A stretch of 64,000 nt of DNA, from the NCBI GenBank assembly GCA_017394805.1, contig JAFPXC010000020.1, positions 69,578 through 133,577 on the forward strand, in the 5' to 3' direction. Shown in pieces: positions 1,446-52,805 of the stretch. A program made the position numbers and the translations under genes. Origin of the DNA: Clostridia bacterium. Lineage in GTDB: Bacteria; Bacillota; Clostridia; Christensenellales; CAG-1252. A model generated the notes under the pieces. The model ran no database searches and had not been told where the DNA came from. It worked only from the letters and a program-made list of their open reading frames with translations. Positions within the stretch are counted from its first letter, which is position 1, and each line of letters opens with the position of its first letter.

Positions 1446-1727
1446 GTATACGTTATGTACTGTACATTTTGTATCGTGATAACGAGTAAAACAGTAGAAG
1501 ATATACGTAACGTATAGTATTGACAAAATATATACGTTTTGTATAGGAGTTCCTATGTATATACGTTTTGTGAAGAAAACCGCGTTTGTTGTATATACGT
1601 TTTGTATAGAAACGATGCTTATAGTATGGTTTTAGACTTTTGGAAAATGGAAAAGAGTATAAATTGTATAGTTTGCTATGAAATTATACAAAACGTATAG
1701 TCGTAGACTGCTGTACGTTTTGCATGT
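1446..1727. repeat. Cluster of about 9 copies of the palindromic motif (C)TRTAC-N5-GTAYA(G), locus 1
   Basis: Sites at 1447-1461, 1460-1476, 1501-1517, 1530-1546, 1560-1574 (degenerate), 1593-1609, 1684-1700 and 1711-1727, plus a right half-site at 1666-1671. The 18-mer TATATACGTTTTGTATAG is identical at 1529-1546 and 1592-1609, with a 15/18 copy at 1558-1575. The cluster lies between the divergent yhhQ and oxidoreductase promoters. Confidence 0.85.
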
Positions 1728-1824: not shown

Positions 1825-3138
1825 ATGAGCAAGATTATCGTAGTTGGATTGGGGCACGGCGGGTTGATTGCCGCCGCGAAATTGGCCGAATCGGGCCACG
1901 AAGTCGTTATCTTCGAGAAGCGTTTGCCGCACGAGATTGGGCACGAATGGGAAGATAGATTCGACTTCGACCTCTTGGCGCGGATAATCGGCAAGGATAT
2001 CGCGGACTTCCCCGAGGGGAGTTGGCGGTATAGGGGAGATTGCACCTTCGTCAGCCCCGACAAGCGTACCGTGATAGACGTGCATTTTGCGAAAGACAAG
2101 CGGCAAAAAATCATGTGGCGCAAGCCGCTGATCGGGATGCTCGTCGACTACGCCCGCAGCAAAGGCGTGGAGATACGCTACCAAACGGAAGTCTCCGCGC
2201 CCGTTGTCAAGGACGGCAAGGTGGTCGGCGTCATCGTCGAGGGCGAAAAGGCGTATGCCGACCTCGTCGTTGACGCGTCGGGCGTATTCTCCGTCCTGCG
2301 CAAACAACTCCCCGACGATTGGGGAATAGAGAAAGAGCCGACGCGCGGCGACGTGTTCTACGCCAACCGCGCCTATTACGCTCGAGTCGACGGATACCCC
2401 ACCCCCGTCGTTCCTTTCGAGATCTACTTGATACACGAGGGCGAGCAGGGGCTGTCGTGGCTATGCACCAACGAGGACTCGGTGGACGTGTTGATCGGTC
2501 GCGTTTATCCCATAGACGAGGCCAAAGTAGAGGAACAACTGCGCATTTTCCGCGCGTCGCACCCGTGGCTCGGCGAGAAAGTACGGTGCGGCGGCAACTT
2601 TGCCGTCATTCCCGTGCGCAGGCCCTTGACGCGCATGGTGGGCGAGGGGTATGCCGCCGTGGGTGATTCGGCTTTTATGACCACGCCGATGAACGGTATG
2701 GGCATCGACTTGTCCCTACGAGCGGGGGAGATATTGGCCGAGAGCATAGGCGAAAAGGGCGTGACGATAGACGCCTTGTGGGCGTATAACCGCAAGTACC
2801 TCGCCACGGTGGGTGCCGCGGCCGCCAAGAACGAGGGGCTCAAAAACGCCTTGCTCAATCTACCGCCCGAGGGCGTGGATTTCTTGTACGAAAGCGGCGT
2901 CGTCGAGGCGGAAGACCTATCGGGCGGCGGCAAAAATATGACCTTTCGGCGGCTTATGCGCAAGTTGATACACGGTATGAAACGCCCCAAATACTTCTTC
3001 GCCATCGTCAAAGGGCTGATGAAAGGCGGCAAAATGACCAAATTGTATGCAAATCCGCCGCAAAACTTCGACTGCGAGGCCATCGCCGAATGGTCGCGTA
3101 AGATCGAGCAAAACGTCGTGAAAGTGGAGGAAAGATGA
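1825..3138 (+). CDS. FAD-dependent oxidoreductase (geranylgeranyl-reductase / phytoene-desaturase-like fold)
   Basis: 437 aa. The N-terminal sequence IIVVGLGHGGLIAAAKLAESGHEVVIFEKR is a GxGxxG-x17-E dinucleotide-binding motif. A GDSA-type FAD motif (AAVGDSAF) lies near residue 290. Confidence 0.75.
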   Translation: MSKIIVVGLGHGGLIAAAKLAESGHEVVIFEKRLPHEIGHEWEDRFDFDLLARIIGKDIADFPEGSWRYRGDCTFVSPDKRTVIDVHFAKDKRQKIMWRKPLIGMLVDYARSKGVEIRYQTEVSAPVVKDGKVVGVIVEGEKAYADLVVDASGVFSVLRKQLPDDWGIEKEPTRGDVFYANRAYYARVDGYPTPVVPFEIYLIHEGEQGLSWLCTNEDSVDVLIGRVYPIDEAKVEEQLRIFRASHPWLGEKVRCGGNFAVIPVRRPLTRMVGEGYAAVGDSAFMTTPMNGMGIDLSLRAGEILAESIGEKGVTIDALWAYNRKYLATVGAAAAKNEGLKNALLNLPPEGVDFLYESGVVEAEDLSGGGKNMTFRRLMRKLIHGMKRPKYFFAIVKGLMKGGKMTKLYANPPQNFDCEAIAEWSRKIEQNVVKVEER

Positions 3139-7672: not shown

Positions 7673-7963
7673 CTATTTTTGCAAGGACTTGAGATAATTC
7701 TTGCATTCGTACATTCGGTTGTCGGCGCGGTTGTCGTAATCTTCGCCTTCCGGCAAGACGACGAATTCGTCGCCGCCGTTGCGATAGACGGGACTATGCT
7801 TGAATTGATTGCAGATGAGCGTGCACGCGTTGCGGAGCAGTTTTTCGACTTCGAGAAGACCTCGTTGTTGACGATAAACAGCAAGGCAATGGCAAGTATC
7901 GGCACGATCGAATACATTTATTTCTCCCAATATCTCTTTGTTGTAAGTAAAATATTGTAGCAC
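7673..7963 (-). pseudogene. Remnant or miniaturised GGDEF (diguanylate cyclase) domain
   Basis: The 96-aa frame contains RNGGDEFVVL and a RADNRMYECK tail (compare RADxAlYxAK). It lacks the N-terminal half of the domain and about 40 aa between the two motifs. There is only a GTG start and no SD. Confidence 0.45.
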
Positions 7964-8130: not shown

Positions 8131-8206
8131 GGGGGCATGGCTCAGTTGGTAGAGCGATACGTTCGCAACGTATAGGCCAGGGGTTCGAATCCCCTTGTCT
8201 CCACCA
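8131..8206 (+). tRNA. tRNA-Ala (anticodon CGC), CCA encoded
   Basis: Hand-folded cloverleaf. Acceptor GGGGGCA/TGTCTCC with the Ala identity pair G3:U70. D arm GCTC-AGTTGGTA-GAGC. Anticodon stem ATACG/CGTAT with loop TTCGCAA. T arm AGGGG-TTCGAAT-CCCCT. 3' CCA. Confidence 0.93.
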
Positions 8207-10190: not shown

Positions 10191-12095
10191 CTAATATCCT
10201 TTGGTGCAGTCTACGACGTTCTGCGGGGCGCGCCCCTGGATATAGTCGATGACGTTTTGGGTGACGTCCTGCACGTAGCGGTCGTGACCGTCCATGACGA
10301 ACATGGCGCGATGGGGAGAAAGGACTACGTTGTCGAACTCTTGCAAATTGTATTTGCTGGGCATGAGTAGGTCGGATTTGTTTTTGGGTTTTTCCTTCCA
10401 TACGTCGTTGGCGATGCCGGCGATAACGTTGTTTTTGAGCGCGTCGTAGAGATCTTTTTCGTTGAGTACGTTGCTACGGCCCACGTTGACGATGAATTTA
10501 TCGCGCAACCACTCGAAACTCTCCTTGTTGAAAATATCGTCCGTGTCGGGCGTTTTCGGCAGGGAAGAGATGATGAGATCGCAAGTTTGGCACAGCTCTT
10601 TGAAATCCTTGACGAGACGAACGTTGTGGTAGGGTTTGCCTCTGTCTATGGTGTATGTCTCAATATCGTTGGCCATGAGTATTTTGTGTATCTGCTTGCC
10701 GATGTCGCCATAGCCCAATAGACCTATCTTCATATCGAAAATGCTTTTCCAATACCGATAGTTTTCGTCGTTCCATTCGCCTTTTCGGAGTTTTTTGTCG
10801 AAAATGCAGATTTGATTGACCAGCGTGATAGCCAACCCGAACGCATACTCGGCAATGTAGTCCGAATTGACGTGCGAATTGCACAATAATACGTCCTTTT
10901 GGGCCAGCTCTTTGAGGGGGAAATCGTCTACGCCCGTCTTGTAGGCGAAGATCGCTTTGAGACGATTGGCCGTAGCGAGCGTGGCCGCGGAGAGTTTCTT
11001 GCCGATGAAGACGTCAACGTCGGATAGGTCTACGTCGTTCAATCCGCATACGCGGACGGTGGCGAAATTGGACAGCACGCTACGCATTCTTTCGAAGGAA
11101 GCGTCCATTTCACCCACGCTCAGCAATATGGTGGGATCTTTCAATATCCGATTGAAATCGTAGTAGGAAGCCACCGTTTCGTAGGGTGCGTTGAGAATGT
11201 CGCCCGCCACTTGGTGTTTGAGTATATAAGACGATATGCCCAATTCGAGCGCTTCCGAGAGGTCGTCGTGCGTGAATAGTCCGTATATAACGCCTGCGTC
11301 GAAAGCGTCGCCCCCGCCGATGCGTTCTTTGACGCGCAATTTGATGCCGTCCAACGCGATGGTTTCCTTGTGAGAGGCCGCCACCACGCGCATCAAGCCG
11401 ACTTCGCCTTTTTTGTCGTCGAGTCTATCCCGCAAAAACAGGTATTTGGCGTCGGGATAGAGCGAAAAAAAGCCGTTGACGAAATCGTCTTGCAGATCTA
11501 AAAAGACCTGCATATCCTTGGTGGACGCCGAGATCACGTCGACGTAGCGAAGCAGTTTGCGAAACGTCGCGCCCGCTTGGTCGGTAGTCCACAAAGCGGG
11601 GCGGTAATTGAAATCGAAACTTGTGGGAATGCCCCGTTCCCGTGCGCTTCGGAGAAGGCGAAACGCCACTCGCTCGGCGGAAGGGGACACGGCGAACGAA
11701 ATGCCCGACACGTGGAACCATCCTACGTCGTCGAAAATATGCTCGAAATCAACGTCGCTCTCGTCGATATGCGCGAATGCGGAATTGCGCCTGTTGTAAA
11801 CGGTCGCTTTGGCGCGGTCTTTCTCTTGGGCGAAGAGATAGTATTCGCCCATATTGCCGTCTTTGACAATGACCGAAGACGTGTCGACGCGGTATTCGTT
11901 GAGTTTGGCGAGGGCGAACGCGCCGATCTTGTCTTTGGGCAGTACGCTGAGATACTTCGCGTCGAGCCCCATTCCCGAAAGACAGCATAATACGTTCGCT
12001 TCCGTGCCGCCGCAGCAATAGTCGAAAGACGAATTGGTATCTATATCGTCTGCGGATAATCTGAGTAATATTTCACCGAATGCAAGTACTTTCAT
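10191..12095 (-). CDS. Fusion protein: PfkB-family sugar(-acid) kinase (KdgK-like) + D-isomer-specific 2-hydroxyacid dehydrogenase
   Basis: A single 634-aa ORF. The N-terminal ~310 aa are KdgK-like (FGEILLRL, GGTEANV, and the GGGDAFDAG anion hole). The C-terminal ~300 aa carry the NAD site GLLGYGDIGKQI and an R/D/H catalytic set (VGRSNV, ANDVW, SPHRA). Confidence 0.8.
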   Translation of the reverse strand: MKVLAFGEILLRLSADDIDTNSSFDYCCGGTEANVLCCLSGMGLDAKYLSVLPKDKIGAFALAKLNEYRVDTSSVIVKDGNMGEYYLFAQEKDRAKATVYNRRNSAFAHIDESDVDFEHIFDDVGWFHVSGISFAVSPSAERVAFRLLRSARERGIPTSFDFNYRPALWTTDQAGATFRKLLRYVDVISASTKDMQVFLDLQDDFVNGFFSLYPDAKYLFLRDRLDDKKGEVGLMRVVAASHKETIALDGIKLRVKERIGGGDAFDAGVIYGLFTHDDLSEALELGISSYILKHQVAGDILNAPYETVASYYDFNRILKDPTILLSVGEMDASFERMRSVLSNFATVRVCGLNDVDLSDVDVFIGKKLSAATLATANRLKAIFAYKTGVDDFPLKELAQKDVLLCNSHVNSDYIAEYAFGLAITLVNQICIFDKKLRKGEWNDENYRYWKSIFDMKIGLLGYGDIGKQIHKILMANDIETYTIDRGKPYHNVRLVKDFKELCQTCDLIISSLPKTPDTDDIFNKESFEWLRDKFIVNVGRSNVLNEKDLYDALKNNVIAGIANDVWKEKPKNKSDLLMPSKYNLQEFDNVVLSPHRAMFVMDGHDRYVQDVTQNVIDYIQGRAPQNVVDCTKGY

Positions 12096-21868: not shown

Positions 21869-24853
21869 TTAGATGACATAGAACTTTCTCGTTCGATAGA
21901 GTAGGGCGTACACGATTACCCATACTGGCAGCAACAGTAGCATGGCCGCGGGGTAGAACACGGGGGCGATAAGGGTGTTGATCTCGCTGATATTGGCGCC
22001 CGATTTCGGATTGAAGAAGGCGATCAGTAAGAAGATCATCATCAATATCAACGCCACCATGAACGAGGTTGCGAACGATAGTTTGAAGGAGAAGGTCGCC
22101 GGCGCGTGTCGGTCTTTGTACGCCAGATAGCGTACGCCGCAGTAGCAGGGGATAAGGAACAGCACGATGCCCGTGCATAGGTAGGGCATAAAGCCGAGCC
22201 CCGCGTATTTGTCACACACGAAGTAGCCGATGAGAATGAGCGCGACCGCCACCAGATAGACTAAGCACGAGGTGGCAAAGCGAATGCTGTTGACGTTGAT
22301 ATATTTCTGCGAATAGTACTGCACGGTATGCTGGACGACGTATTGGCGCACATCGTAGCCTTTTTTGCGCATCTCTTCGCGGAATTCGGACAGACTGCCG
22401 CATTCCTTCATCGTGATTTTGCTGTCCACGTCTTCTTGCTGTTTGGGCGCGTTGGACGAATTGAACAAGTTGTGCAAAATCGTCTTGTACGACAGGTGTT
22501 TTTCCGTTTCTTCCTGTTGCAGGTAGATTTCCAATTCGGTTTGGGGCGTGAAGATGGCGGAGTAGGACTCTCTCTTTGGCGAGATTTCTTCCTCTTTGAC
22601 CTCGGGCACTTCCTCTTCTGGCTCTTGCGGCTCCTCGGTTTTATCGTCCTCGATCAAGCCCAAAAGGCGCATAGAAGCAAGCCTTTTCTCGTGCATTTCG
22701 GGGTTTTCTTCCAATTCTTGCCGAATGTCGGCACGACTGAACGCCGTCCTGCGTTTGATTGGTTCAGGCTCGGCTTGGGCGGCCTCTTGCGATTGCTCGT
22801 ACAAGGCAAAGGTGTCGGCTTCTTCCTCTTCGGCAATGACGCGTTCCTCGTTTTTGCGGCCTTTACGCCCTTTCTGCCGCGCCTTTTTGTCTTCTTTGAC
22901 GGGCGCAACGGGCTCGTTCGATTCTTCCTCGGGCAAGGAACTATTCGCCTCTACGACGGCTTCGTCATAGGTGGATTCGGGCTGTGCTTCCGCTTGTTCC
23001 GAGGGGAGAGTAGCCTCGACGTCGGACGGAGTTTCGTCGGTTTGCGCTTCTTCTTGCGTTTCGCTATCGGCGTCGTCGGCACGAGATTCTTGTTCGGCGG
23101 GTTCTTCCGTTCGTTCGCTTGCGACCACAGGCTCTTTATAGGTTCGTTCTGCTTCGGGCACTACGGGATATTCCTCGTCGGTCGTCTCTTGTGCGGGTTC
23201 TTCCGTTGTGTCTTGGGATGGCTCGCCGAAGAGGACGTATTCGTCCATCACGGTCGAAGTCGGTTCGTAGGCGGATTCGGTCTCGACCGCGGTGGGCGTT
23301 TCGTCGTCCTCGACAACTGCTTCGAGCTCGTCGGTTTCGTTATATTCTTCGGTTATGTCTTCTTCTGCCGCTTCGTCTCGTTCGTCGACGGGTTGCTCGG
23401 CGCTTTCGGTTTCGATCGATTCGTCTTCAACGTCGGCGTTTTCGTCAACTATTTCCGCGCATATCTCGTCTTCGTCCGTATCGTCGGTATTTTCGACGAC
23501 AAAGGGCGGTTCATCGCCGTCTTCTTCGTGTTCTTCGCTATTCTCTGCGGCGATAACTTGTTCGTCTTCCGATTCTTCTTCGACTGCTTCCGTTTGGTCG
23601 CTTTCGACAGCATACGCGGCCTCGTCCGCCGTATCGTCGAATTGCTCGTCGAGCACTTCCTCGGCAACTTCGGCAGGTTCTTCCTCGTCGTTATCGTCCG
23701 ATTCTCGTTCGTCTTCGCAGACGGTTTCAGCTTGTTTGAACGGCTCGTAAGAGTAGGGCGGCTCGTATTCGCTTGCCGCTTCATCGTCTGCGCTTTCGTC
23801 TTCGTCCGTCACCTGCGCCTCTTCCGCCGTATCGTCTTCGGCGGCGTAAAGCGCTTCGTGCGCAGGCTCGTATTCTTCGTCCGATATTGCTTCCTCGTCC
23901 GTTTCTTCTTGCACGACCTCTTCTTGCTCGTCGTCGGAGGGTAGGGCGGGTTGTTCTTCGTCTTGGGCGGCTTCTTTTATTTCAGTCTCGTCTTCGTTTA
24001 TATCGTCGGCAGCTTCTTCGAAGGGCTCTTCCTTGATTTCTTCCTCGTCCGACTCGGCGAAAACTTCCTCGACTTGTTCGGCTTCTGCGGGGAGTTCGTC
24101 GGAAATTTCTTCGCATTCGACGTTGGAATCTTCCTCAGACTCGGACGAATCGTCTTCGTCAACGTCCTCGGCAGCGTCTTTCGCCGCTATTGAATCTTCT
24201 TCCGTTTCGGCGGGCTCTTCGACTTCTACGGGGCATTCTTCTTCGATTTGCGCGGAATCATCCTCGTTTTCTTGGTCATCAGCTGCGTTTTCGGTCGAAT
24301 ATTGCGCATCGGTATCCGTTTCCTGTTCGGTTAGAGATTCGTCAATGGCGATATCCGTTTCACTTTCGACTTCACTTTCGTCGGTATCGGCGGCGTCCGC
24401 TTCCGCTGCAAGTTCGGTGAACTCCTCGGCATCTTCGATTTCGAAAATCTCGAGGTTGTCTTCAAAAATGTGCAGGGTAGGCTTGCCGTCACCGAAATCA
24501 TCGGTGAGATATATCTTCTCGTTCGAAGCGCTCACCGGAGAGAGCGCCAGCGCGTCGCACAATTTGTCGATCATTTGGTCGTCCAGATTGAACATAGGCA
24601 GGTCATCGACCGAAATGCGCAGGGCAAAAAACGAGCGGTTGGGATCGGATTCTTGACAAATGCAGGCAATCAGGCAATCCAACTGCAATTCGTTGACTCT
24701 ATTGGCGACGCTCAAAGGGGAAATATGATAACGGTCCAAAAAACCGTCCAAAGACGACGTAATCTCGTAAACTGTCAACGAGGAATGCGCCAATGCGTTG
24801 AGTATGTAGGAATCCATTTGTTCCAGCAATTCATCGTATATATTATTTCCCAT
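21869..24853 (-). CDS. Hyper-acidic membrane-anchored protein: winged-helix-like N-terminal domain, ~540-aa D/E-rich disordered tract, 4-TM C-terminus
   Basis: 994-aa ORF. The N-terminal ~130 aa are globular (ILNALAHSSLTVYEITSSL... resembles a wHTH). Residues ~140-680 are roughly 40-50 percent D+E by eye, with almost no K/R. A short basic patch follows (KKARQKGRKGRKNEER). The C-terminal ~150 aa contain four long hydrophobic helices. No family recognised. Confidence 0.75.
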   Translation of the reverse strand: MGNNIYDELLEQMDSYILNALAHSSLTVYEITSSLDGFLDRYHISPLSVANRVNELQLDCLIACICQESDPNRSFFALRISVDDLPMFNLDDQMIDKLCDALALSPVSASNEKIYLTDDFGDGKPTLHIFEDNLEIFEIEDAEEFTELAAEADAADTDESEVESETDIAIDESLTEQETDTDAQYSTENAADDQENEDDSAQIEEECPVEVEEPAETEEDSIAAKDAAEDVDEDDSSESEEDSNVECEEISDELPAEAEQVEEVFAESDEEEIKEEPFEEAADDINEDETEIKEAAQDEEQPALPSDDEQEEVVQEETDEEAISDEEYEPAHEALYAAEDDTAEEAQVTDEDESADDEAASEYEPPYSYEPFKQAETVCEDERESDDNDEEEPAEVAEEVLDEQFDDTADEAAYAVESDQTEAVEEESEDEQVIAAENSEEHEEDGDEPPFVVENTDDTDEDEICAEIVDENADVEDESIETESAEQPVDERDEAAEEDITEEYNETDELEAVVEDDETPTAVETESAYEPTSTVMDEYVLFGEPSQDTTEEPAQETTDEEYPVVPEAERTYKEPVVASERTEEPAEQESRADDADSETQEEAQTDETPSDVEATLPSEQAEAQPESTYDEAVVEANSSLPEEESNEPVAPVKEDKKARQKGRKGRKNEERVIAEEEEADTFALYEQSQEAAQAEPEPIKRRTAFSRADIRQELEENPEMHEKRLASMRLLGLIEDDKTEEPQEPEEEVPEVKEEEISPKRESYSAIFTPQTELEIYLQQEETEKHLSYKTILHNLFNSSNAPKQQEDVDSKITMKECGSLSEFREEMRKKGYDVRQYVVQHTVQYYSQKYINVNSIRFATSCLVYLVAVALILIGYFVCDKYAGLGFMPYLCTGIVLFLIPCYCGVRYLAYKDRHAPATFSFKLSFATSFMVALILMMIFLLIAFFNPKSGANISEINTLIAPVFYPAAMLLLLPVWVIVYALLYRTRKFYVI

Positions 24854-24890
24854 ATAATAGTATTTTAGTACAAACGACCATAAAAGTCAA
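24854..24890 (-). promoter_or_regulatory. Putative promoter of the acidic-protein gene (leaderless or near-leaderless)
   Basis: Minus strand TTGACT - 17 nt - TAAAAT - 8 nt - ATG (24853). No SD. Confidence 0.45.
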
Positions 24891-24946
24891 TAAGAACGCA
24901 AATATTATAGGTGAGCGACCGCTAAAATGAAACGGCGGCGAAGCAC

Positions 24947-25354
24947 AATACATTATGTACGGTATGAAACGTATAGTATAATCGGCATACAAAACGTATA
25001 GTTTTATAACCATACAAAATGTATAGCAATACATACAAAATGTACAATAGCGGCAGTAATGGCGTATATGTACATTTTGTATAGTATACTGTACATTATG
25101 TATAGTTGCAAATAAAACATCAGCCATGGAAGACGGGGAGTTGGTGCGCGTGTACGTTTTGTATAGTGCGCTATACGTTATGTATAGATACACAAGTTGC
25201 TCGGTAATGACTATATGTTTTGTATATCTACGACAAATATTCATGTACAAGGATACTGTCGATCGGCTTGCCGTGTTCGCTCCGGATTGTCTGTATGTCT
25301 TCGATGAATGCCTTGTTTTTGTTTGGCGGCTATTTATTCTGTACAAAACGTACG
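24947..25354. repeat. Palindrome array, block A: at least 11 copies of CTRTAC-N5-GTAYAG
   Basis: Left half-site starts at 24947, 24986, 25011, 25032, 25069, 25090, 25151, 25172, 25212 and 25340, plus a right-half-only site at 24971. Examples: CATACAAAACGTATAG (24986-25001) and CTATACGTTATGTATAG (25171-25187). The spacer is always A/T-rich. Confidence 0.9.
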
Positions 25355-25370
25355 ATTTTGGCCAAATTTT

Positions 25371-25416
25371 GCCTATATCTTTTCGCAAAAGGCGTCTTTT
25401 GCGAAAAGATATAGGC
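25371..25416. repeat. Perfect 21-bp inverted repeat (hairpin/cruciform) in the array core
   Basis: GCCTATATCTTTTCGCAAAAG (25371-25391), loop GCGT, then CTTTTGCGAAAAGATATAGGC (25396-25416). There is no flanking U-tract on either strand. Confidence 0.9.
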
Positions 25417-25618
25417 AAAGCGCAAATTTCCCTCGTCAGAGCCCGTATATACAAAAGATAATTGCCGCCCGACACCACCGAACGGAATGGGTTGGCGTGC
25501 GTGCGCTTTCGTTCGGCCAAACTGACGGATCGCCCCTGCCCTATCGACGCAAATTTGCAAAAATCGTCAAAATTCTCCTCGGGGGAAAATACTTGCATTC
25601 GCCAAAAAACGCGCGATA

Positions 25619-26229
25619 TGTACATAATGTATAGTCAAATAAACGCCTGGTGATGGCCTATATATAATGTATACAAAATGTACAGTCAACTGTATAAAAC
25701 GTATAGATAAGAATTATTGGGACCAACATTGCATTCTGTAGATTTTATACAGCAAACTATACTAAACGTATAGATGGCAATTAAGAATGAATAGCGCGAC
25801 CTCACTCCCCCGCCCTGACCGTCCTTCAATAATCGAACTATACAAAATATATATATAACTATACATATTGTATACTATACATTTCATACAGCGTACTATA
25901 CATTATGTATATGTATATTTCGTATAGTAAATATGTCCTTACGGCTGCTTCCCGTTTTGAGCCGTCAATATTGTCCATTGTGTATGTACAAATTGTATAG
26001 ATACAAAACGTATAGGCCTATACAAAGCGTACAGTCATTCGTTTCATCGGCACGCTGTACAAAACGTATATGGTGTGTTTGAGACTATGCTATACGTTAT
26101 GTATATATACAAATTGTATAGTTTGAAACGTCGCTATACATATCGTATACATACATTTTGTATACTTGGCGTTCGTCTTGCTGAGATACGATTCTTCCGC
26201 CCGCATATTGTTACTGTATAAAACGTATA
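25619..26229. repeat. Palindrome array, block B: at least 20 copies of CTRTAC-N5-GTAYAG
   Basis: Left half-site starts at 25619, 25659, 25670, 25691, 25737, 25758, 25839, 25860, 25876, 25897, 25912, 25985, 26000, 26019, 26056, 26091, 26106, 26135, 26150 and 26215. Example: CTATACTAAACGTATAG (25757-25773). Confidence 0.9.
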
Positions 26230-26291
26230 TTATCGGTATTTTTTGTATATTCAATCATTTTAGAAAAATATGTTTTTTTATCGAAAAAGTC

Positions 26292-26320
26292 TTGCAAAAA
26301 TAACCTGTTTATGGTAGAAT
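26292..26320 (+). promoter_or_regulatory. Putative sigma-A promoter of the XRE gene
   Basis: TTGCAA - 17 nt - TAGAAT. A leader with SD GAGGTG precedes the ATG at 26347. Confidence 0.55.
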
Positions 26321-26346
26321 GAAACTACCATTTATGAGGTGCAGTA

Positions 26347-26559
26347 ATGAACAATTTTAAGTACAATCTCATAATCACCCGCAAGCGTTGCAAGTATACC
26401 CAAAAGGAGATGGCGGATATGCTTGGCGTGACCGAGGGTTGCTACGCGCACTGGGAACAAGGGCGGAATGAGCCGAGCATCGCTTATATCATTCAGCTTT
26501 GCAAACTGTTACACGTTACGTCGGACGAGCTGCTGGGTGTCAACAATGACGAGAACTAA
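26347..26559 (+). CDS. XRE-family helix-turn-helix transcriptional regulator
   Basis: 70 aa. YTQKEMADMLGVTEGCYAHWEQGRNEPS is a classic Cro/C1-type HTH. Confidence 0.82.
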   Translation: MNNFKYNLIITRKRCKYTQKEMADMLGVTEGCYAHWEQGRNEPSIAYIIQLCKLLHVTSDELLGVNNDEN

Positions 26560-26581
26560 GTCGCAAACAGCGACTTTTTTC
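26558..26581 (+). terminator. Probable intrinsic terminator after the XRE gene
   Basis: AAGTCGC / GCGACTT stem with a 5-nt loop, then T6. It overlaps the stop codon. Confidence 0.55.
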
Positions 26582-26609
26582 TTTGCTTAAAATCTTTTCG
26601 CAAAAATTA

Positions 26610-26644
26610 TTGCATTTCCGCTCAATCCGTCTTATCATAATAGT
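26610..26644 (+). promoter_or_regulatory. Putative promoter giving leaderless recombinase mRNA
   Basis: TTGCAT - 17 nt - TATCAT (26633-26638) - 6 nt - ATG (26645). No SD. Confidence 0.5.
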
Positions 26645-27700
26645 ATGGACAATTACTTTCAAAACCGCGATATCGAAAACACGAAGAAGCTGAGCGCGCT
26701 ACGCAAGCAACTGCCGCCCTACTGCGGCAAGTATTTCGTCGCCATTTCTTCGGTCACGACGGCTTTGACGAGATTGGGCTACGCACGCGATTTGCTCATA
26801 TTCTTCAACTACCTCTGCTCTACCGGTCAATTCGGCATGTGCACACCCCCCGAGTTCGATATCGACCGTCTCAACGCCGTAACGCAATCGGACATCGAGG
26901 CCTATCTCGATTATCTGTCCAATTACGAGGTGGACGGCAAAATATACGTCAATAAATTGAGCGCCATGTCGCGCAAACTGTCCGCCGTGCGCTCTCTCTT
27001 CAAATATCTGTATAACAAGGACTTGTTGCACGAAAACGTTTCCGCCAAGGTGCTGACGCCCAAACTGCACGAAAAGGAAATCATTAGGCTGGAGTCGGAC
27101 GAAATGCAGCGCTTTATGGACGTGGTGGAACGCGGCGACAATCTGGGCGAGGGGCATCAATCGGCCTACCACAAAAACGTCGCCCTGCGCGATATGGCCA
27201 TCACTACCCTACTGCTCGGCACGGGCATTCGTATCAGCGAATGCGTCGGCCTCAACGTGGACGACCTGGACTTCGACAACCGCAAATTCGTCGTGACGAG
27301 GAAAGGCGGCAGTCGCTCCATATTGTATATGCCCCAAGAGGTGATCGACGCGTTGCAGGCCTACCTCAGCGTACGTTTGGCCATTCCCACAGATACCGAC
27401 GCCTTGTTTTTGTCCCTGCAAAACAGGCGTATCAACGTGCGTACCGTGCAGATTATGGTGCGAAAATACGCCGCGGCCGCCGTGCCGACGAAGCATATCA
27501 CGCCGCACAAATTGCGCTCTACGTTCGGTACCAATCTATATAGAGAAACCAAAGATATTTATGTCGTGGCCACCGTACTCGGCCATAGCGACGTGAATAC
27601 GACCAAAAAACACTACGCCGCCATCAGCGAAGATATCAAAAAGCAGGCGGCAGAGGTCGTGCGCTTGCGCCCCTCGGACGGCGACGATACGCACGAATAA
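26645..27700 (+). CDS. Tyrosine site-specific recombinase, XerC/XerD-like
   Basis: 351 aa. N-terminal SAM-like core-binding domain. The catalytic residues sit in their usual context (GTGIRISE; HKLRSTFGT; LGHSDVNTTKKHYA). Confidence 0.9.
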   Translation: MDNYFQNRDIENTKKLSALRKQLPPYCGKYFVAISSVTTALTRLGYARDLLIFFNYLCSTGQFGMCTPPEFDIDRLNAVTQSDIEAYLDYLSNYEVDGKIYVNKLSAMSRKLSAVRSLFKYLYNKDLLHENVSAKVLTPKLHEKEIIRLESDEMQRFMDVVERGDNLGEGHQSAYHKNVALRDMAITTLLLGTGIRISECVGLNVDDLDFDNRKFVVTRKGGSRSILYMPQEVIDALQAYLSVRLAIPTDTDALFLSLQNRRINVRTVQIMVRKYAAAAVPTKHITPHKLRSTFGTNLYRETKDIYVVATVLGHSDVNTTKKHYAAISEDIKKQAAEVVRLRPSDGDDTHE

Positions 27701-27706
27701 CGCAGT

Positions 27707-27901
27707 CTATTTTTTCGATTTATTGTTGGGAACAACGACGCTGTCGATCAAAACGCCGTTGTAGTCCGCCATATCCAAGCATTTCATGCAGTTATCACAG
27801 CGCTTCGTGGGATCCAGATCGCACATATCGCAAGCGCCGCAATCGTCGCAAATAACGCCTTTGACCAAAATACATTCCTTGCCGACGTTGGGATTAGTCA
27901 T
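27707..27901 (-). CDS. Small cysteine-rich protein, 2 x [C-x7-C-x2-C-x2-C]
   Basis: 64 aa. GGAGG lies 7 nt upstream of the ATG. 8-nt overlap with the upstream ynbB-like gene. Eight Cys at positions 10, 18, 21, 24, 27, 35, 38 and 41 form an internal duplication. Confidence 0.6.
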   Translation of the reverse strand: MTNPNVGKECILVKGVICDDCGACDMCDLDPTKRCDNCMKCLDMADYNGVLIDSVVVPNNKSKK

Positions 27902-39562: not shown

Positions 39563-42124
<2,562 letters not shown>

Positions 42125-42134
42125 AATGTCCTCC

Positions 42135-42971
42135 TTATTCCAAACCCTCCACGTACTTGCGGAAGGCGTCTTTGTTGCCCTCGTCCACCGCGAGGTGGTT
42201 GAAGGCGTGTATGTAGCCGAATTTATTGCCCACGTCGTAGCGCTCGCCCGAGAACTTGCAGTATTGCACGTGTGCTTTTCCGGCCTCGATATTGAGAGCG
42301 TCCGTGAGCCACAATTCGCCCGCACGGACGTCCGTGTTGCGCAGTATTTCAAATCCCTTTTTGTCCAATACGAAGCGCCCGAGGCTGGTCAAATTGCCCG
42401 ACAGTTCGCCCTGCGGCTTCTCTACGATGCGGCTGACTCTGCCGTTGCGGTCGGTCTCGGCCTTGCCCTCTACGAGGGCACAGGTGCGGATGATCTCCTC
42501 TTTTTGCGCCTGTACGCCGATGACCGAGCAATAGTCGTGCGTGGTAGATACGTCGATGAGTTGCTTGGTGGCGGCGGGATCGCCCACGATGATATCGTCG
42601 CCGAACAAGACGGCTACCGTCTGTCCGTCGGCGAATTCCATGCCGCGAAGAACGGCGGCGCCCGAGCCGTACAGATTGCCTTGATAGTTGAAGGCTACGC
42701 TGACCATCTTGCCCAAACAGTTGTATTCGTAGGTGCCGCCTTTGTCGAAGGTGCGCGGATCCTCGGTGCCCGCGAAATATTTGGCAACCATCCCTTTTTC
42801 GTGATTGATGACGAACAAAATCTCGGTGACGCCGCTCGCCACGGCCTCTTCCACGATGTATTGCAACGTGGGTTTGACGCCGATGGGCAGCATCTCCTTG
42901 GCGATGATGTTGGTGATGGGTTGCATCCGTGTACCGCGACCTGCTACGGGGATAATGGCTTTTTTGATCAT
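42135..42971 (-). CDS. galU: UTP--glucose-1-phosphate uridylyltransferase
   Basis: 278 aa from the ATG at 42971 (AAAGGAGAG upstream). The N-terminal KAIIPVAGRGTRMQPITNIIAKEMLPI is a nucleotidyltransferase motif. Confidence 0.82.
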   Translation of the reverse strand: MIKKAIIPVAGRGTRMQPITNIIAKEMLPIGVKPTLQYIVEEAVASGVTEILFVINHEKGMVAKYFAGTEDPRTFDKGGTYEYNCLGKMVSVAFNYQGNLYGSGAAVLRGMEFADGQTVAVLFGDDIIVGDPAATKQLIDVSTTHDYCSVIGVQAQKEEIIRTCALVEGKAETDRNGRVSRIVEKPQGELSGNLTSLGRFVLDKKGFEILRNTDVRAGELWLTDALNIEAGKAHVQYCKFSGERYDVGNKFGYIHAFNHLAVDEGNKDAFRKYVEGLE

Positions 42972-42996
42972 ATTGCTCTCCTTTATGATTTGCCTA

Positions 42997-43031
42997 TTGG
43001 CAATTTGCGTTTTTCGGTGTATAATAATGGT
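42997..43031 (+). promoter_or_regulatory. Putative promoter giving leaderless dinB mRNA
   Basis: TTGGCA - 17 nt (ending in TG) - TATAAT (43020-43025) - 6 nt - ATG (43032). Confidence 0.5.
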
Positions 43032-44288
43032 ATGCTTACACCCGATTTTTCTCGTATCATCCTGCATATCGACGCCAACAACTTCTACGCGTCCTGCGAA
43101 TGCGCCCGCAACCCCGAACTCAGGGGACACCCCTTGGTGGTGTGCGGCAATCCGCAAAAACGCAAAGGTATCGTGTTGGCCAAGTCCTACGAAGCCAAAC
43201 GCTACGGCATTCAAACGGGGGATACGGTGTTTACCGCCCAAAAGAAGTGCCCTAACGTTATTTTGATTCAACCGGACTTTTCTATTTATTCCTATTACAG
43301 CAAGCGGCTGTTTGCGCTCTACACGCAGTACACCGACCGCGTGGAAAGTTTCGGTATGGACGAGTGCTGGCTGGACGTCACGGGCTCCAAGCGCCTCTTC
43401 GGCGACGGCAAGCAAATCGCGGACGCCATACGCGAGAAGGTCAAGGAAGACCTACGACTCACCGTATCCGTCGGCGTGTCCTTTACCAAGGTCTTCGCCA
43501 AACTCGGCTCGGACTACAAGAAGCCCGACGCTACCACGGTCATCGACCGCGACAACTACCGCACCCTCGCCTGGGGCCTGCCCGTCGGCGATATGATCAT
43601 GGTCGGGCACCAGACCGAGAAAGCCTTGCGCAACATCGGCATACTCACCATAGGTGAGTTGGCCAACGCGCCCGAGAATATCCTGCGGGACAAGTTCGGC
43701 GTCAACGGCGTCAAACTAATGCACGCGGCGCAGGGTATCGAGGACGGCGAAGTGATGCACTACTACGACCACGTGATACCCGAAAGCATTTCCAACGGCA
43801 CCACCACCTCGGTGGATATCGAACGCGTCGAAGAAGCGCTCGCTCTCGTTACCACATTATCCGATATGGTGACCACGCGCCTGAGGGGGTACGGCCTACG
43901 CGCCATGGGTTGCTTCATCTACTGCAAATCGCACGATTTCGCGGGATTCGGCGGCACCATGCGGCTGGACTACCCCATCGGCTCGGCGAGCGAACTCATT
44001 GACAACTGTATGGAGATGCTGCGCTCTTTGTGGAGCGAACGCTCGTTCGTACCCTTGCGCTCCATCACCTTGGGCGTGTCGCGCCTCATCGGCGGCGACG
44101 TCTATTGGCAGACCTCTATATTTGACACGGTGGACCACCAACGCAACACGCAGGCCGACCAAGCCGTGGACGGCATACGCGCCAAGTTCGGCAAAGGCGT
44201 CATTTCCAGAGCCGCCACCCTCACCTACACCTATACGACGGACGAAATACTCGACGACAGCACCTACAAACCCTTCAAAAAGAACTGA
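43032..44288 (+). CDS. dinB: DNA polymerase IV (Y-family)
   Basis: 418 aa. ILHIDANNFYASCE, SFGMDECWLD and SVGVSFTKVFAKLGSDYKKPD motifs. The ORF-track entry 42111..44288 is this gene fused to an antisense shadow of galU. Confidence 0.9.
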   Translation: MLTPDFSRIILHIDANNFYASCECARNPELRGHPLVVCGNPQKRKGIVLAKSYEAKRYGIQTGDTVFTAQKKCPNVILIQPDFSIYSYYSKRLFALYTQYTDRVESFGMDECWLDVTGSKRLFGDGKQIADAIREKVKEDLRLTVSVGVSFTKVFAKLGSDYKKPDATTVIDRDNYRTLAWGLPVGDMIMVGHQTEKALRNIGILTIGELANAPENILRDKFGVNGVKLMHAAQGIEDGEVMHYYDHVIPESISNGTTTSVDIERVEEALALVTTLSDMVTTRLRGYGLRAMGCFIYCKSHDFAGFGGTMRLDYPIGSASELIDNCMEMLRSLWSERSFVPLRSITLGVSRLIGGDVYWQTSIFDTVDHQRNTQADQAVDGIRAKFGKGVISRAATLTYTYTTDEILDDSTYKPFKKN

Positions 44289-50859: not shown

Positions 50860-51435
50860 TTAGACCGCCACTTTGACCATCGCGGGTCTGATGACGTAAT
50901 CTTTGTATTTGTAGCCCTCTTGGAACACGGCGACCACTTTGCCCGCTTCGTCCGCGTTCTCCTCTTGCATCACGGCGTTGTGCACTTCGGGATCGAAGGC
51001 TTCGCCGAGGGCGGGTATCTGCTCCACGCCTATCTTCTGCATGGCCAAATCGAATTGCTTTTTGATCTGTACGATGCCGGCCATGGCCTTGTCGTCTTCT
51101 TTGAGCACTTCCAAGGCGCGGTTGATGCTGTCGATGACGGGGAAGACGGCGGTCAAGGTTTGGGTGATGCCCACCAATTTCTGCCGCTCGTTGTCGGCGG
51201 CCGAACGCTTGCGGTAATTGTCGTACTCGGCGAGCATACGCAGATACTTTTCGTTCTGCTCCTTATTCTCCTTTTCGAGCCGTTTTACCTCGTCCGCGAG
51301 TTTCTGCTTCTCCGTCGGGCCGTTCTTCTTGGGGGCTTTGGGCTTTTCGACGGTTTCTTTGCCCGCGTCGCTCGCTTGCTCTACCGTTTGCTCGGCCTTT
51401 TCTTCTTGATTGATGTCCTGTTGCTTGTCGTTCAT
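50860..51435 (-). CDS. grpE: Nucleotide exchange factor GrpE
   Basis: 191 aa. Coiled-coil N-terminus plus a C-terminal beta domain. 4-nt overlap with hrcA. Confidence 0.92.
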   Translation of the reverse strand: MNDKQQDINQEEKAEQTVEQASDAGKETVEKPKAPKKNGPTEKQKLADEVKRLEKENKEQNEKYLRMLAEYDNYRKRSAADNERQKLVGITQTLTAVFPVIDSINRALEVLKEDDKAMAGIVQIKKQFDLAMQKIGVEQIPALGEAFDPEVHNAVMQEENADEAGKVVAVFQEGYKYKDYVIRPAMVKVAV

Positions 51436-52448
51436 TTCGTCTCCTTATCGTCCAATATGGACTTGATGGTCATTTCCAAGTATTGCAGTACGCCGATGAC
51501 TTTTTTGTAATCCATGCGCTCGGGGCCTATGACGCCGGCGTGCACCTCGCGGTTGCCGCTCACTTTGTAGGTGGCGGACACCAACGAGCCGTGTTCGATG
51601 CCGTCCTCTTTGCCGATGCGGAAGCTGAATTCGACGTCCGAATCGCCTACCATATCCGTCAGTTCCTCTTTGTGCTCCAGTAGGGACAGCACGCCGCGCA
51701 TATTGTCCACTTCGTCCGTGTACTCGGGATAGTCCAGCAGTTTGCTGGTGCCCTCGACGAACACCGAGGCGTCGCCCCCGCCGAAACGCTCCAAGGAAGA
51801 GATGATTTGGTCCAAAATGTCCTTGTAGGCCTGTATCTCGCCCTCAACCGAATTCATCTTGTCGCGTATCTCGTCCACGGTCATGCCGCCGAACATACGA
51901 TTGAGCAGATCCGAACTGGTCTTGAGATAACTATCGCCCATATCGGCGGGAATGTCGATGATGCAATCCTTGAGGACGCCCGAGTCCGTGATAATGACCA
52001 CCAACGCCTTATCGCCGCCCAAGTCCACCAATTTGATGTCCTTGACGCGCACGGTGCCCACGTTTTTGACCACGATGACCGAGGTGTAGTTGGTGGTATC
52101 CGACAGCACCTGCGCCGTGGAACGAATGACGTCGGCCACGTCGTCCATCTTGTCGTCGAGGTAGGTCTTGAGGTCGGTAATCTGCGGCACCATCGGCCCT
52201 TCGGTGGGAATGGTCTCCACGAACAATTTGTACGCCTTGGCGGTGGGGATGCGGCCGGCGGATACGTGCGGTTGCACCAGATAGCCCATCTTCTCCAAAG
52301 CGGCCAACTCCGCACGAATGGTGGCCGAACTGATCTCTTCGCCATAATCCTCTTTGATGTCCGCGCTCGACACGGGCTCGGCCGTCTCGATATAACGCGC
52401 CACCAATAGGCACAGTATCTTTTGTTTGCGAATGGTCAGCGTACTCAT
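51432..52448 (-). CDS. hrcA: Heat-inducible transcription repressor HrcA
   Basis: 338 aa from the ATG at 52448 (GAGGAG 7 nt upstream). MSTLTIRKQKILCLLVARYIETAEPVSS is a wHTH. CIRCE operators lie upstream. Confidence 0.9.
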   Translation of the reverse strand: MSTLTIRKQKILCLLVARYIETAEPVSSADIKEDYGEEISSATIRAELAALEKMGYLVQPHVSAGRIPTAKAYKLFVETIPTEGPMVPQITDLKTYLDDKMDDVADVIRSTAQVLSDTTNYTSVIVVKNVGTVRVKDIKLVDLGGDKALVVIITDSGVLKDCIIDIPADMGDSYLKTSSDLLNRMFGGMTVDEIRDKMNSVEGEIQAYKDILDQIISSLERFGGGDASVFVEGTSKLLDYPEYTDEVDNMRGVLSLLEHKEELTDMVGDSDVEFSFRIGKEDGIEHGSLVSATYKVSGNREVHAGVIGPERMDYKKVIGVLQYLEMTIKSILDDKETK

Positions 52449-52477
52449 TTGGCTCTCCTCGGTTAGTATGCCCGACT

Positions 52478-52504
52478 TTGGCACTCGTAACCCTTGACTG
52501 CTAA
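52478..52504. promoter_or_regulatory. CIRCE operator 1 (overlaps the predicted TSS)
   Basis: TTGGCACTC-N9-GACTGCTAA against the consensus TTAGCACTC-N9-GAGTGCTAA. Confidence 0.85.
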
Positions 52505-52584: not shown

Positions 52585-52631
52585 CTATACAAATTGTATA
52601 TTTTTGACCAATTTCTATACGCTTCGTATAG
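52585..52631. repeat. Two copies of the CTATAC-N5-GTATA(G) palindrome, locus 3
   Basis: CTATACAAATTGTATAT (52585-52601) and CTATACGCTTCGTATAG (52615-52631). They lie about 50-100 bp upstream of the hrcA promoter. Confidence 0.8.
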
Positions 52632-52805
52632 TTAATTATCCGTATTGCCTACGTTATGATAGTCGCACGGTCTTTCCGTTTGCGCCGCTTCGTCGTATAT
52701 CGGCGCGCACGCCTTATATCTCGCGCGACCTTATAAATCTCGTTGCGCACGCACTCATACGAAAAAGGGCGCCCGACGGACGCCCTCGTTGGCTATCAAA
52801 AGCCG

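Follow-up and report, generated by a model that had tools for sequence, protein, structure and literature searches.

A candidate XerS-like dimer-resolution module, with an array of operator-like palindromes around its dif site, in a Clostridia bacterium

Why should a tyrosine recombinase gene lie between two clusters of housekeeping genes, next to a small XRE regulator, a dense array of short palindromes and a highly acidic membrane protein? The question is raised by one locus in a 64-kb stretch of a single genome, that of a Clostridia bacterium of the Christensenellales (assembly GCA_017394805.1, contig JAFPXC010000020.1, positions 69,578 to 133,577). This whole stretch is called the window here, and all statements about the window refer to it. 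A preliminary description, made from the letters of the window, had singled out these four elements as one block between the two clusters, and all four are indeed present there (Table 1). That description did not include the dif core of the array interval, the palindrome with 24-nt arms around this core, a 14-mer that is repeated at the recombinase promoter, or the clusters of the palindromic motif that lie outside the interval. The interval is now considered likely to be a terminus dimer-resolution module, which consists of a XerS-like recombinase and its dif site, with an array predicted to be bound by the XRE protein as accessory architecture and with a linked winged-helix membrane protein.

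The recombinase, its site and the replication terminus

The recombinase contains a Pfam Phage_integrase domain (122.8 bits) and an N-terminal SAM-like domain (27.4 bits), and its catalytic residues R196, K220, H288, R291, H314 and Y324 are invariant in a 21-sequence alignment of the family. The best NCBIfam match is XerS (NF003462; 196.4 bits, E 5.5e-58), which is aligned from model position 7 to 355 of 360. The profiles of XerA, XerC and XerD score 161, 157 and 141 bits, and generic phage integrase profiles, at 144 bits, cover the protein only in part. By sequence, the nearest solved structures are those of XerD and XerA, and XerH is also found. The recombinase has at least 8000 homologues, with at least 593 genome matches listed for its relatives, and no second paralogue was found within the window. 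From these, a comparison set was made of 80 genome loci encoding relatives of 48-58% identity; it is drawn mostly from uncultured Clostridia and Christensenellales-like organisms, plus cultured Lachnospiraceae (Brotonthovivens).

The non-coding gap upstream of the XRE gene has a central, GC-richer island, and this island holds a perfect palindrome with 24-nt arms and a dif-like 11-6-11 core. The core is made up of two identical inverted 11-bp arms around an asymmetric 6-bp centre, which is the architecture of Xer core sites; since the arms are identical, a homodimeric recombinase fits. The 28-bp site is single-copy within the window and lies upstream of the recombinase gene, with 1,238 bp between the core and the gene start. 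When counted with up to 3 mismatches, the pattern TWTTCGYAAAA-N6-TTTTRCGAAWA is present in 46 of the 80 loci; in 44 of the 80 it is found within 4 kb upstream of the recombinase gene, often 100-500 bp off, and 6 further loci have variant arms. Across the loci the arms are kept and the 6-bp centre varies. Among close relatives, the dif is the sole block of the central island that can be aligned, and the pairing of recombinase and dif extends to Lachnospiraceae. No dif of the Bacillus subtilis or Escherichia coli type was found in the window or the loci, and the 31-bp consensus of streptococcal difSL is likewise unmatched in all of them when as many as 6 mismatches are allowed. As a separate observation, one locus (L040, 7924-9817) has two dif-like sites 1.87 kb apart, at 7924 (2 mismatches) and 9790 (5 mismatches), which flank three small unassigned open reading frames (ORFs); the pair may mark the ends of a small element that has inserted at a dif of this kind.

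The position of the dif with respect to replication was assessed from GC skew, by comparing the 8 kb to its left with the 8 kb to its right in the 30 testable loci. The skew is greater on the left in 29 of the 30 loci and changes sign from plus to minus in 26, with means over the loci of +0.083 on the left and -0.038 on the right. In 8 loci that have the recombinase without a nearby dif, no such sign switch is seen; thus, the switch travels with the dif site and not with the recombinase gene. Within the window, the skew to the left of 25.4 kb is +0.07 to +0.12 on either gene strand, and to the right it is about zero. With 4-kb arms the skew contrast is noisy, and the switch is placed no finer than a few kb. 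In addition, an exploratory count of the KOPS-like words GGGNAGGG and GAGAAGGG finds 11 of 11 oriented toward the dif, with the right side confounded by gene orientation. The comparison across loci shows the dif locus to be, as far as skew can indicate it, the replication terminus.

XerS is the best full-length match, the site lies upstream of the recombinase gene, and the position is that of the terminus; because of these three features, recombinase and dif can be assigned on sequence to the XerS/difSL type of chromosome dimer-resolution module. The preliminary description had considered that the chromosomal Xer-type recombinase might sit here by coincidence. It was right as to the type of the enzyme, and the coincidence falls away, since the dif lies in the array interval at the terminus. 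In the mechanism proposed here, for which streptococcal XerS/difSL is the precedent, each dif would be occupied by a pair of recombinase monomers, one per arm, and chromosome dimers would be converted into monomers at division, presumably under the control of FtsK, and the asymmetric centre of the dif would give the recombination its direction.

The recombinase gene may also be connected to the dif through its promoter. This promoter consists of TTGCAT (26610-26615), a 17-nt spacer and TATCAT (26633-26638), which is followed after 6 nt by the ATG at 26645. It is omitted by the promoter scan because its -35 element fits the consensus at only 3 of 6 positions. Relatives, however, have a clear TTGACA-17-TATAAT-~6-ATG at the start of the recombinase gene, and a leaderless mRNA is therefore plausible, as a prediction from these promoters. 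A leaderless-type promoter directly after the XRE terminator had been suggested earlier, and it gains support from this conservation, even though the -35 of the window copy is weak. Four nucleotides ahead of TTGCAT, the 14-mer ATCTTTTCGCAAAA of the left dif arm is repeated. In many relatives, ACTATTCGYAAAA is fused to TTGACA, or TTGACA is followed by TTTTGCGAATAGT, again with TATAAT some 6 nt ahead of the ATG. Genomes that have neither the XRE gene nor the array share this arrangement, and the half-site is, judged by this distribution, an ancestral promoter feature. A recombinase bound to this half-site would repress its own gene.

In phage collections, the only recombinase matches as high as 47% identity come from two unverified faecal contigs, in which the dif is present as well. 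These records, L086 (MT835478.1) and L087 (MT835555.1), are labelled "UNVERIFIED: Bacteriophage sp."; in both, the same dif-like site lies upstream of the recombinase gene, and instead of phages they may represent pieces of bacterial termini.

The array, the XRE protein and the acidic membrane protein

The layout of the window is kept in metagenome contigs whose recombinases are 79, 78, 67, 66, 65 and 64% identical to the one considered here. The order that they share is lacZ-dnaX-ybaB-recR, a large protein without a Pfam match on the opposite strand, a gap of 1.4-2.3 kb, XRE, recombinase, a small Cys-rich ORF and mgl-miaA-mutL-mutS. One more distant locus, L001 (57% recombinase identity), contains all of these parts as well; its dif-XRE-recombinase segment is inverted with respect to the flanks that hold recR and mutL (L001 7251-13026 vs window 21869-27901), and the array is still at the dif. 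Thus, inversions occur around the dif without separating the parts. A firm place of the recombinase among the housekeeping Xer proteins, together with a lack of co-conservation of the four elements, had been named earlier as what would speak against a single unit. The recombinase is indeed of the Xer type, but the four elements are co-conserved in the clade, and linkage of the membrane protein family to xer/dif reaches well beyond it. These relatives are metagenome assemblies, and several of the contigs end within the array (L081, L082 and L085 do so 0.7-1.2 kb upstream of XRE). In practice, assembly from short reads is evidently interrupted by the array, and thus precisely at the terminus.

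The unit of the array is a 17-bp palindrome, cTRTAC-N5-GTAYAg, or in its full form cTRTAC-(A/G)WWW(T/C)-GTAYAg. The core pattern TRTACNNNNNGTAYA has 22 exact matches in the window, compared with 0.06 expected from shuffles, so that the palindrome array noticed at first reading is real. With up to one mismatch, the gap contains 28 copies, 9 to the left and 19 to the right of the central island, and start-to-start spacings of 21 and 15 bp predominate. The arms are conserved in sequence beyond what complementarity requires, and the spacer is variable, a pattern that is characteristic of sites for a dimeric DNA-binding protein and not of an RNA or of a recombination core. The spacing of the half-sites in the 17-bp dyad, 10 bp, is appropriate for a helix-turn-helix (HTH) dimer of the Cro/cI family.

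The array is found on both sides of the dif in all six genomes with complete gaps, with 14-38 copies per complete gap. One operator-like site keeps its position: in the window, L084, L088 and L089 it starts exactly 40 bp before the 28-mer, and an operator that ends 25 nt before the dif is present at the same aligned position in 6 of 7 genomes. The arrays as a whole cannot be aligned between species, yet the motif is retained, which fits many sites under selection and one reader. Arrays of the same species from independent samples (two pairs) are collinear and 100% and 99.7% identical.

Comparable arrays were not found in the larger AT-rich islands around the dif of outgroups (L004, L017, L025 and L073), and three hits to the motif in L014 are chance matches inside a gene. 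A replication origin or a parS centromere was also considered for the gap and rejected, as there are no DnaA boxes or parS sites in 24854-26346. When metagenomes were scanned for pairs of operators with a 21-bp offset, most of the matches were tandem satellites of 21 bp that have no relation to the array. Recombinase, XRE and dif were absent from all of the matches, and the scan was uninformative on a regulon.

The XRE protein matches Pfam HTH_3 with 46.4 bits (cut-off 23). It has a weak likeness to phage repressors, including the RstR family of phage CTX (52 bits, cut-off 80), and no close relatives were found in phage and viral collections, where the matches reach at most 42% identity. Its orthologues are 71-93% identical, with a nearly invariant HTH, while the recombinase falls to 57-67%. 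They form seven clusters at 90% identity only, and all those that can be placed are on contigs that also carry the recombinase. Furthermore, array and XRE gene occur together in eight lineages and neither is found in 79 other genome loci; over about 90 loci, the co-occurrence of XRE and the 17-mer motif is perfect. It is strongly suggested by this pattern that the XRE protein is the probable binder of the 17-bp dyads. Clusters of the motif also lie outside the gap, one flanked by the genes for a Vut_1 transporter and an FAD oxidoreductase and one upstream of hrcA, next to CIRCE-like elements. The binder of the 17-mers thus has other targets, and these sites suggest a predicted XRE regulon that reaches beyond the array.

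If XRE dimers occupy the 17-mers, they would coat about 1.3 kb around the dif, including the site at fixed phase. Such a coat would then mark or organise the dif region, affecting access, pairing or timing at the dif, and would also set the expression of XRE itself; this is the weakest step of the proposed mechanism.

The acidic membrane protein contains 29% aspartate plus glutamate (D+E) overall and 40% in residues 141-770. The window copy has no Pfam or NCBIfam match; a hidden Markov model of the ortholog N-domain gives only 4.7 bits, and by sequence the protein falls short of PF03551. An AlphaFold2 model, however, has an N-domain (residues 1 to about 140; pLDDT 91-98) of three helices and a beta hairpin, a disordered linker (about residues 160-700; pLDDT below 50) and a C-domain (pLDDT above 90) with four transmembrane (TM) helices. 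The top Foldseek matches in the PDB are PadR-family regulators, with probabilities of 0.95-0.99 and E values of about 0.1, the latter being no better because the query is long and mostly disordered. On the modelled fold together with orthology, the N-domain is a PadR-type winged helix.

On the basis of its C-terminal 210 residues, this protein belongs to a family that comprises 168 clusters at 50% identity. In all cases the domain is C-terminal, in proteins of about 400-1100 residues, and the Pfam PadR winged helix is found at the N-terminus of 46 of 70 members. A query joining N- and C-domains had no match in a word-indexed database; the family was obtained by an exhaustive search with the C-domain. 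Where at least 5 kb is available on both sides of the recombinase, a family member (C-domain profile) lies within 10 kb of it in 24 of 45 loci. Over all loci, the family gene is divergent with the dif in between in 20 cases and directly downstream of the recombinase in 14, mostly with operon-like gaps of 84-150 bp. This recurrent linkage in varied arrangements hints at a function shared with xer/dif; alternatively, it may reflect slow rearrangement around the terminus.

Within the array clade, the N-domain has changed in character. The first 95 residues carry a net charge of -11 in the window copy and of -4 to -13 in the clade, compared with about -1 elsewhere, and the linkers of the clade contain 30-40% D/E. 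Direct DNA binding is doubtful because the winged helix is so strongly acidic, and the protein of the window probably no longer binds DNA itself. An inspection by eye for PadR-type operators near the dif, in genomes with canonical PadR domains, found nothing convincing. As a side observation, a gene for a YgjP-like metallopeptidase lies between the PadR-TM gene and the dif in several outgroup genomes, namely in L035 (8815-9495) and L054 (9125-9823), with Pfam scores of 166-173 bits, and also, by eye, in L073 and L039.

Competing explanations

Several findings weigh against the reading of the interval as a terminus module with an XRE-bound array. The recombinase scores below the equivalog cut-off of XerS (196 vs 267 bits) and is thus not a XerS equivalog, and the sequence of the dif is unlike that of streptococcal difSL. 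In about one third of the related loci, no dif lies near the recombinase gene. The skew step is asymmetric and has no mirror image: in the window and in the average of the loci alike, it amounts to about +0.08 on the side facing away from the recombinase gene, compared with about 0 to -0.04 on the side of the gene. Since the view of the genome is one of 64 kb, the uniqueness of the dif and the count of recombinase paralogues hold within the window. That XRE, rather than another protein, would bind the 17-mers is deduced from co-occurrence and geometry, and the functions of coat and membrane protein would follow from gene linkage and architecture. Finally, the 17-bp motif is also present at other promoters, so that XRE may be an ordinary regulator that has its largest cluster of sites here by chance.

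A bolder form of the proposal can be stated only tentatively, as it is perhaps correct but more probably not. It holds that the array-coated dif domain and the acidic membrane protein would together organise the terminus, through a tether, the pairing of sister dif sites or a pause of the fork. They would then constitute an undescribed system built upon a XerS-type recombinase, and the PadR-linker-4TM family would be a new partner of Xer/dif in Clostridia.

Ordinary regulation alone is a possible alternative, if a rather unlikely one. It supposes an XRE regulon of hrcA, the Vut_1/oxidoreductase pair and the XRE gene itself, with the 1.3-kb field as an oversized autoregulatory or decoy region that shares the gap with the dif by chance and takes no part in recombination or termination. 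This would agree with the usual role of XRE-family proteins, which are typically repressors, with the presence of the motif in two further promoter regions of the window and with the distance of about 40-60 bp between the array ends and the promoters of the XRE and acidic-protein genes. However, a few operators suffice for autoregulation, yet 14-38 are kept per complete gap despite full turnover of the sequence, and the field always straddles the dif, with one site fixed at 25 nt. Furthermore, what borders the array on its left in L001 is the 3' end of a gene and not a promoter, and the array has stayed with dif, XRE and recombinase after the flanks were rearranged. Simple autoregulation is thus disfavoured by the persistence of the array and its placement on both sides.

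Another explanation, which seems unlikely, would make the interval a terminus tether or centromere-like site. Here, XRE would be an adaptor and the acidic protein a membrane or septum anchor for the dif region, comparable to MatP/matS-ZapB or Noc. The placement of the winged-helix-linker-4TM family next to xer/dif in 24 of 45 loci, either divergent across the dif or directly downstream, speaks for this explanation, and the layout of an array with a small DNA-binding protein resembles that of plasmid centromeres. In addition, the acidity of the winged helix in the array clade looks as if DNA binding had moved to another protein. Yet a contact between XRE and the membrane protein is without support, there is no partition NTPase, the linkage could come from slow rearrangement of the terminus, and the family, with its 168 clusters, is small.

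It is quite unlikely, though it has some points in its favour, that the XRE-coated array pauses replication forks and so confines termination to the dif region, as RTP/Ter and Tus/Ter do. Artificial arrays of repressor and operator stall forks. The array of this locus lies at the skew switch on both sides of the dif, next to the gene for its presumed binder, and the shape of the skew step, sharp to one side only and flat to the opposite side, could come from a one-sided barrier. But the sites are palindromic and have no built-in polarity, and a polar terminator is therefore disfavoured; XRE has no homology to RTP or Tus; relatives have Xer/dif at the skew switch without an array; and smaller clusters of the motif occur away from the dif. 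A terminator of the RTP or Tus type as such was rejected on the palindromic sites and on the HTH_3 domain of the protein.

The preliminary description had also raised the possibility of a decayed integrative element, its origin or centromere surviving as the array. In a wider form, XRE and array would be the leftover repressor and operators, or the origin or centromere, of an IMEX or prophage once integrated at the dif. The XRE protein does have its weak likeness to phage repressors (RstR, 52 bits vs a cut-off of 80), the gap is AT-rich, XRE and half of the array lie between the dif and the half-site, and L040 may contain a small insertion between two dif-like sites. This explanation is nevertheless improbable, although an ancient domestication is conceivable. 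The window has a single full dif, with the array to its left and right, and no other genes of an element are present; the half-site is ancestral and occurs without XRE; and the layout has been stable over eight lineages, down to a recombinase identity of 57%, with XRE under strong constraint and without close relatives in viral contigs. In agreement with the first reading, profile searches detect no phage or conjugation genes among the neighbours or in the wider window, no flanking direct repeat was found, and no tRNA target is present, the sole tRNA of the window lying at 8131, 17 kb off. A prophage was rejected for its lack of phage genes, tRNA target, att repeats and close viral relatives, and an IMEX, in which cargo lies between two dif-like sites, on the single full dif of the window.

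Finally, the preliminary description had considered that the palindromes themselves might be targets of the recombinase. Taken as a shufflon or inverton that generates structural variants in 24.9-26.3 kb, this is scarcely credible and was rejected: many mutually inverted repeats do lie beside a tyrosine recombinase, and several metagenome contigs do end inside the array, but the units, of 17 bp with a 5-bp spacer, are unlike the single 28-bp target and are found only where XRE is, the recombinase being far more widespread, same-species arrays are identical and collinear in two independent pairs of samples, and contig ends are expected at any repeat.

Known systems and the remaining features of the window

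If the interval is the terminus dimer-resolution module preferred here, its recombinase-dif core is ordinary known biology, and the layer specific to the clade is the interesting part. XerS of streptococci and lactococci has 356 aa, difSL lies immediately upstream of xerS as one module with it, and resolution depends on FtsK (PMC1914069, PMC2965235). The module of the window resembles this system in having a single recombinase of about 350 aa (351 vs 356), with XerS as its best match, a site upstream of the gene and a place at the terminus. It differs in its 28-bp site with identical inverted arms, where difSL is asymmetric and 31 bp long, in its Clostridia host, in its promoter half-site and, within this clade, in the position of the dif inside an array 1.24 kb from the gene. 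A single recombinase is likewise used in XerH/difH of Helicobacter and Campylobacter and in XerA/dif of archaea (the XerA profile scores 161 bits), but the sequence match is weaker than that to XerS and the sites have other sequences.

There are also parallels to the array. The accessory sequences of cer and psi, which bind ArgR/PepA and ArcA, are similar in that binding sites for proteins other than the recombinase lie beside an Xer core, one of them in the present case at a fixed distance. Here, however, tens of sites, predicted to be bound by XRE, lie on both sides of a chromosomal dif, whereas cer and psi are plasmid Xer sites (PMC2965235). With respect to replication termination, RTP/Ter of B. 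subtilis and Tus/Ter of E. coli each have a small DNA-binding protein that is encoded by its terminus sites, which are few, polar and arranged in opposed groups. No homology to either was found, and the sites of the window are palindromic and tightly packed. The acidic protein resembles PadR-family regulators in that the modelled fold of its N-domain matches their structures best; unlike them, it has the winged helix of that family fused through a low-complexity linker of 100-800 aa to a four-TM domain. In concept, a DNA-binding module that is joined to the membrane or divisome and tied to chromosome segregation recalls Noc, RocS (mentioned in PMC8136486) and MatP/matS, but there is no homology, and four integral TM helices would take the place of an amphipathic helix.

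In the literature consulted, XerS was found only for streptococci and lactococci, apart from one remark on Lactobacillus helveticus; XerH was found for epsilon-proteobacteria and XerA for archaea, and no description was found of the Clostridia module, of an operator field around a dif or of the PadR-linker-TM family. The present comparison suggests that a XerS-like module with a palindromic dif is widespread in gut Clostridia. Recognition of this dif module helps to locate termini and to annotate "integrases" correctly in thousands of metagenome-assembled genomes. Furthermore, if the additional features are functional, they would point to how Firmicutes without MatP or RTP organise or time the events at the terminus.

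The features of the block and the outlying motif clusters are listed in Table 1.

Table 1. Positions of the features of the recombinase block and of related motifs in the window
Feature	Position	Strand	Basis or remark
Outlying 17-bp motif cluster, ~8 sites	1447..1727		between Vut_1 transporter gene (584-1324, -) and FAD oxidoreductase gene (1825-3138, +)
Acidic membrane protein, 994 aa	21869..24853	-	ORF and composition
Non-coding gap, 1,493 bp, without credible gene	24854-26346		GC 0.37 vs 0.54 in window
Promoter-like site of acidic protein gene, TTGACT-17-TAAAAT	24862..24890	-	consensus match only
Left block of 17-bp palindromic operator-like sites, about 9-11 copies, 9 at <=1 mismatch	24948..25228
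Positionally conserved operator-like site	25340..25354		ends 25 nt before dif core
Perfect extended palindrome around dif, 24-nt arms	25368-25419
dif core, TTTTCGCAAAA-GGCGTC-TTTTGCGAAAA, 11-6-11	25380..25407
Right block of operator-like sites, 19 copies at <=1 mismatch	25616..26251
XRE promoter, TTGCAA-17-TAGAAT, TG extension	26292..26320	+	scan; consensus match only
Cro-like XRE protein, 70 aa, HTH_3 domain only	26347..26559	+	Pfam
Intrinsic terminator of XRE gene	26558..26583	+	scan (26558-26576) and sequence
Half-dif site ATCTTTTCGCAAAA	26592..26605	+	identical to left arm of dif
Recombinase promoter, TTGCAT-17-TATCAT	26610..26638	+	read from sequence
XerS-like tyrosine recombinase, 351 aa	26645..27700	+
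Cys-rich 64-aa protein	27707..27901	-	recurrent recombinase neighbour
Two perfect 17-bp motif sites	52586..52632		upstream of hrcA (51432-52484, -)

The block is flanked on the left by dnaX-ybaB-recR and on the right by the Cys-rich 64-aa ORF, a Met_gamma_lyase-family gene, miaA, mutL and mutS. The Cys-rich protein has CxxCxxC motifs and no family match in profile searches; in about 25 of the 80 loci, a tblastn match to it lies within about 2.5 kb of the recombinase, and in L001 its gene (11049-11264) overlaps the recombinase stop codon by 8 bp. Rfam and tRNA scans found nothing within the interval. Elsewhere in the window, a 725-aa ORF (42111-44288; noted region 43000-44288) has a Y-family polymerase (IMS) domain from residue 320 onward only. 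Its N-terminal extension, which overlaps a clpB-like gene on the opposite strand, is probably an artefact of an upstream TTG start.

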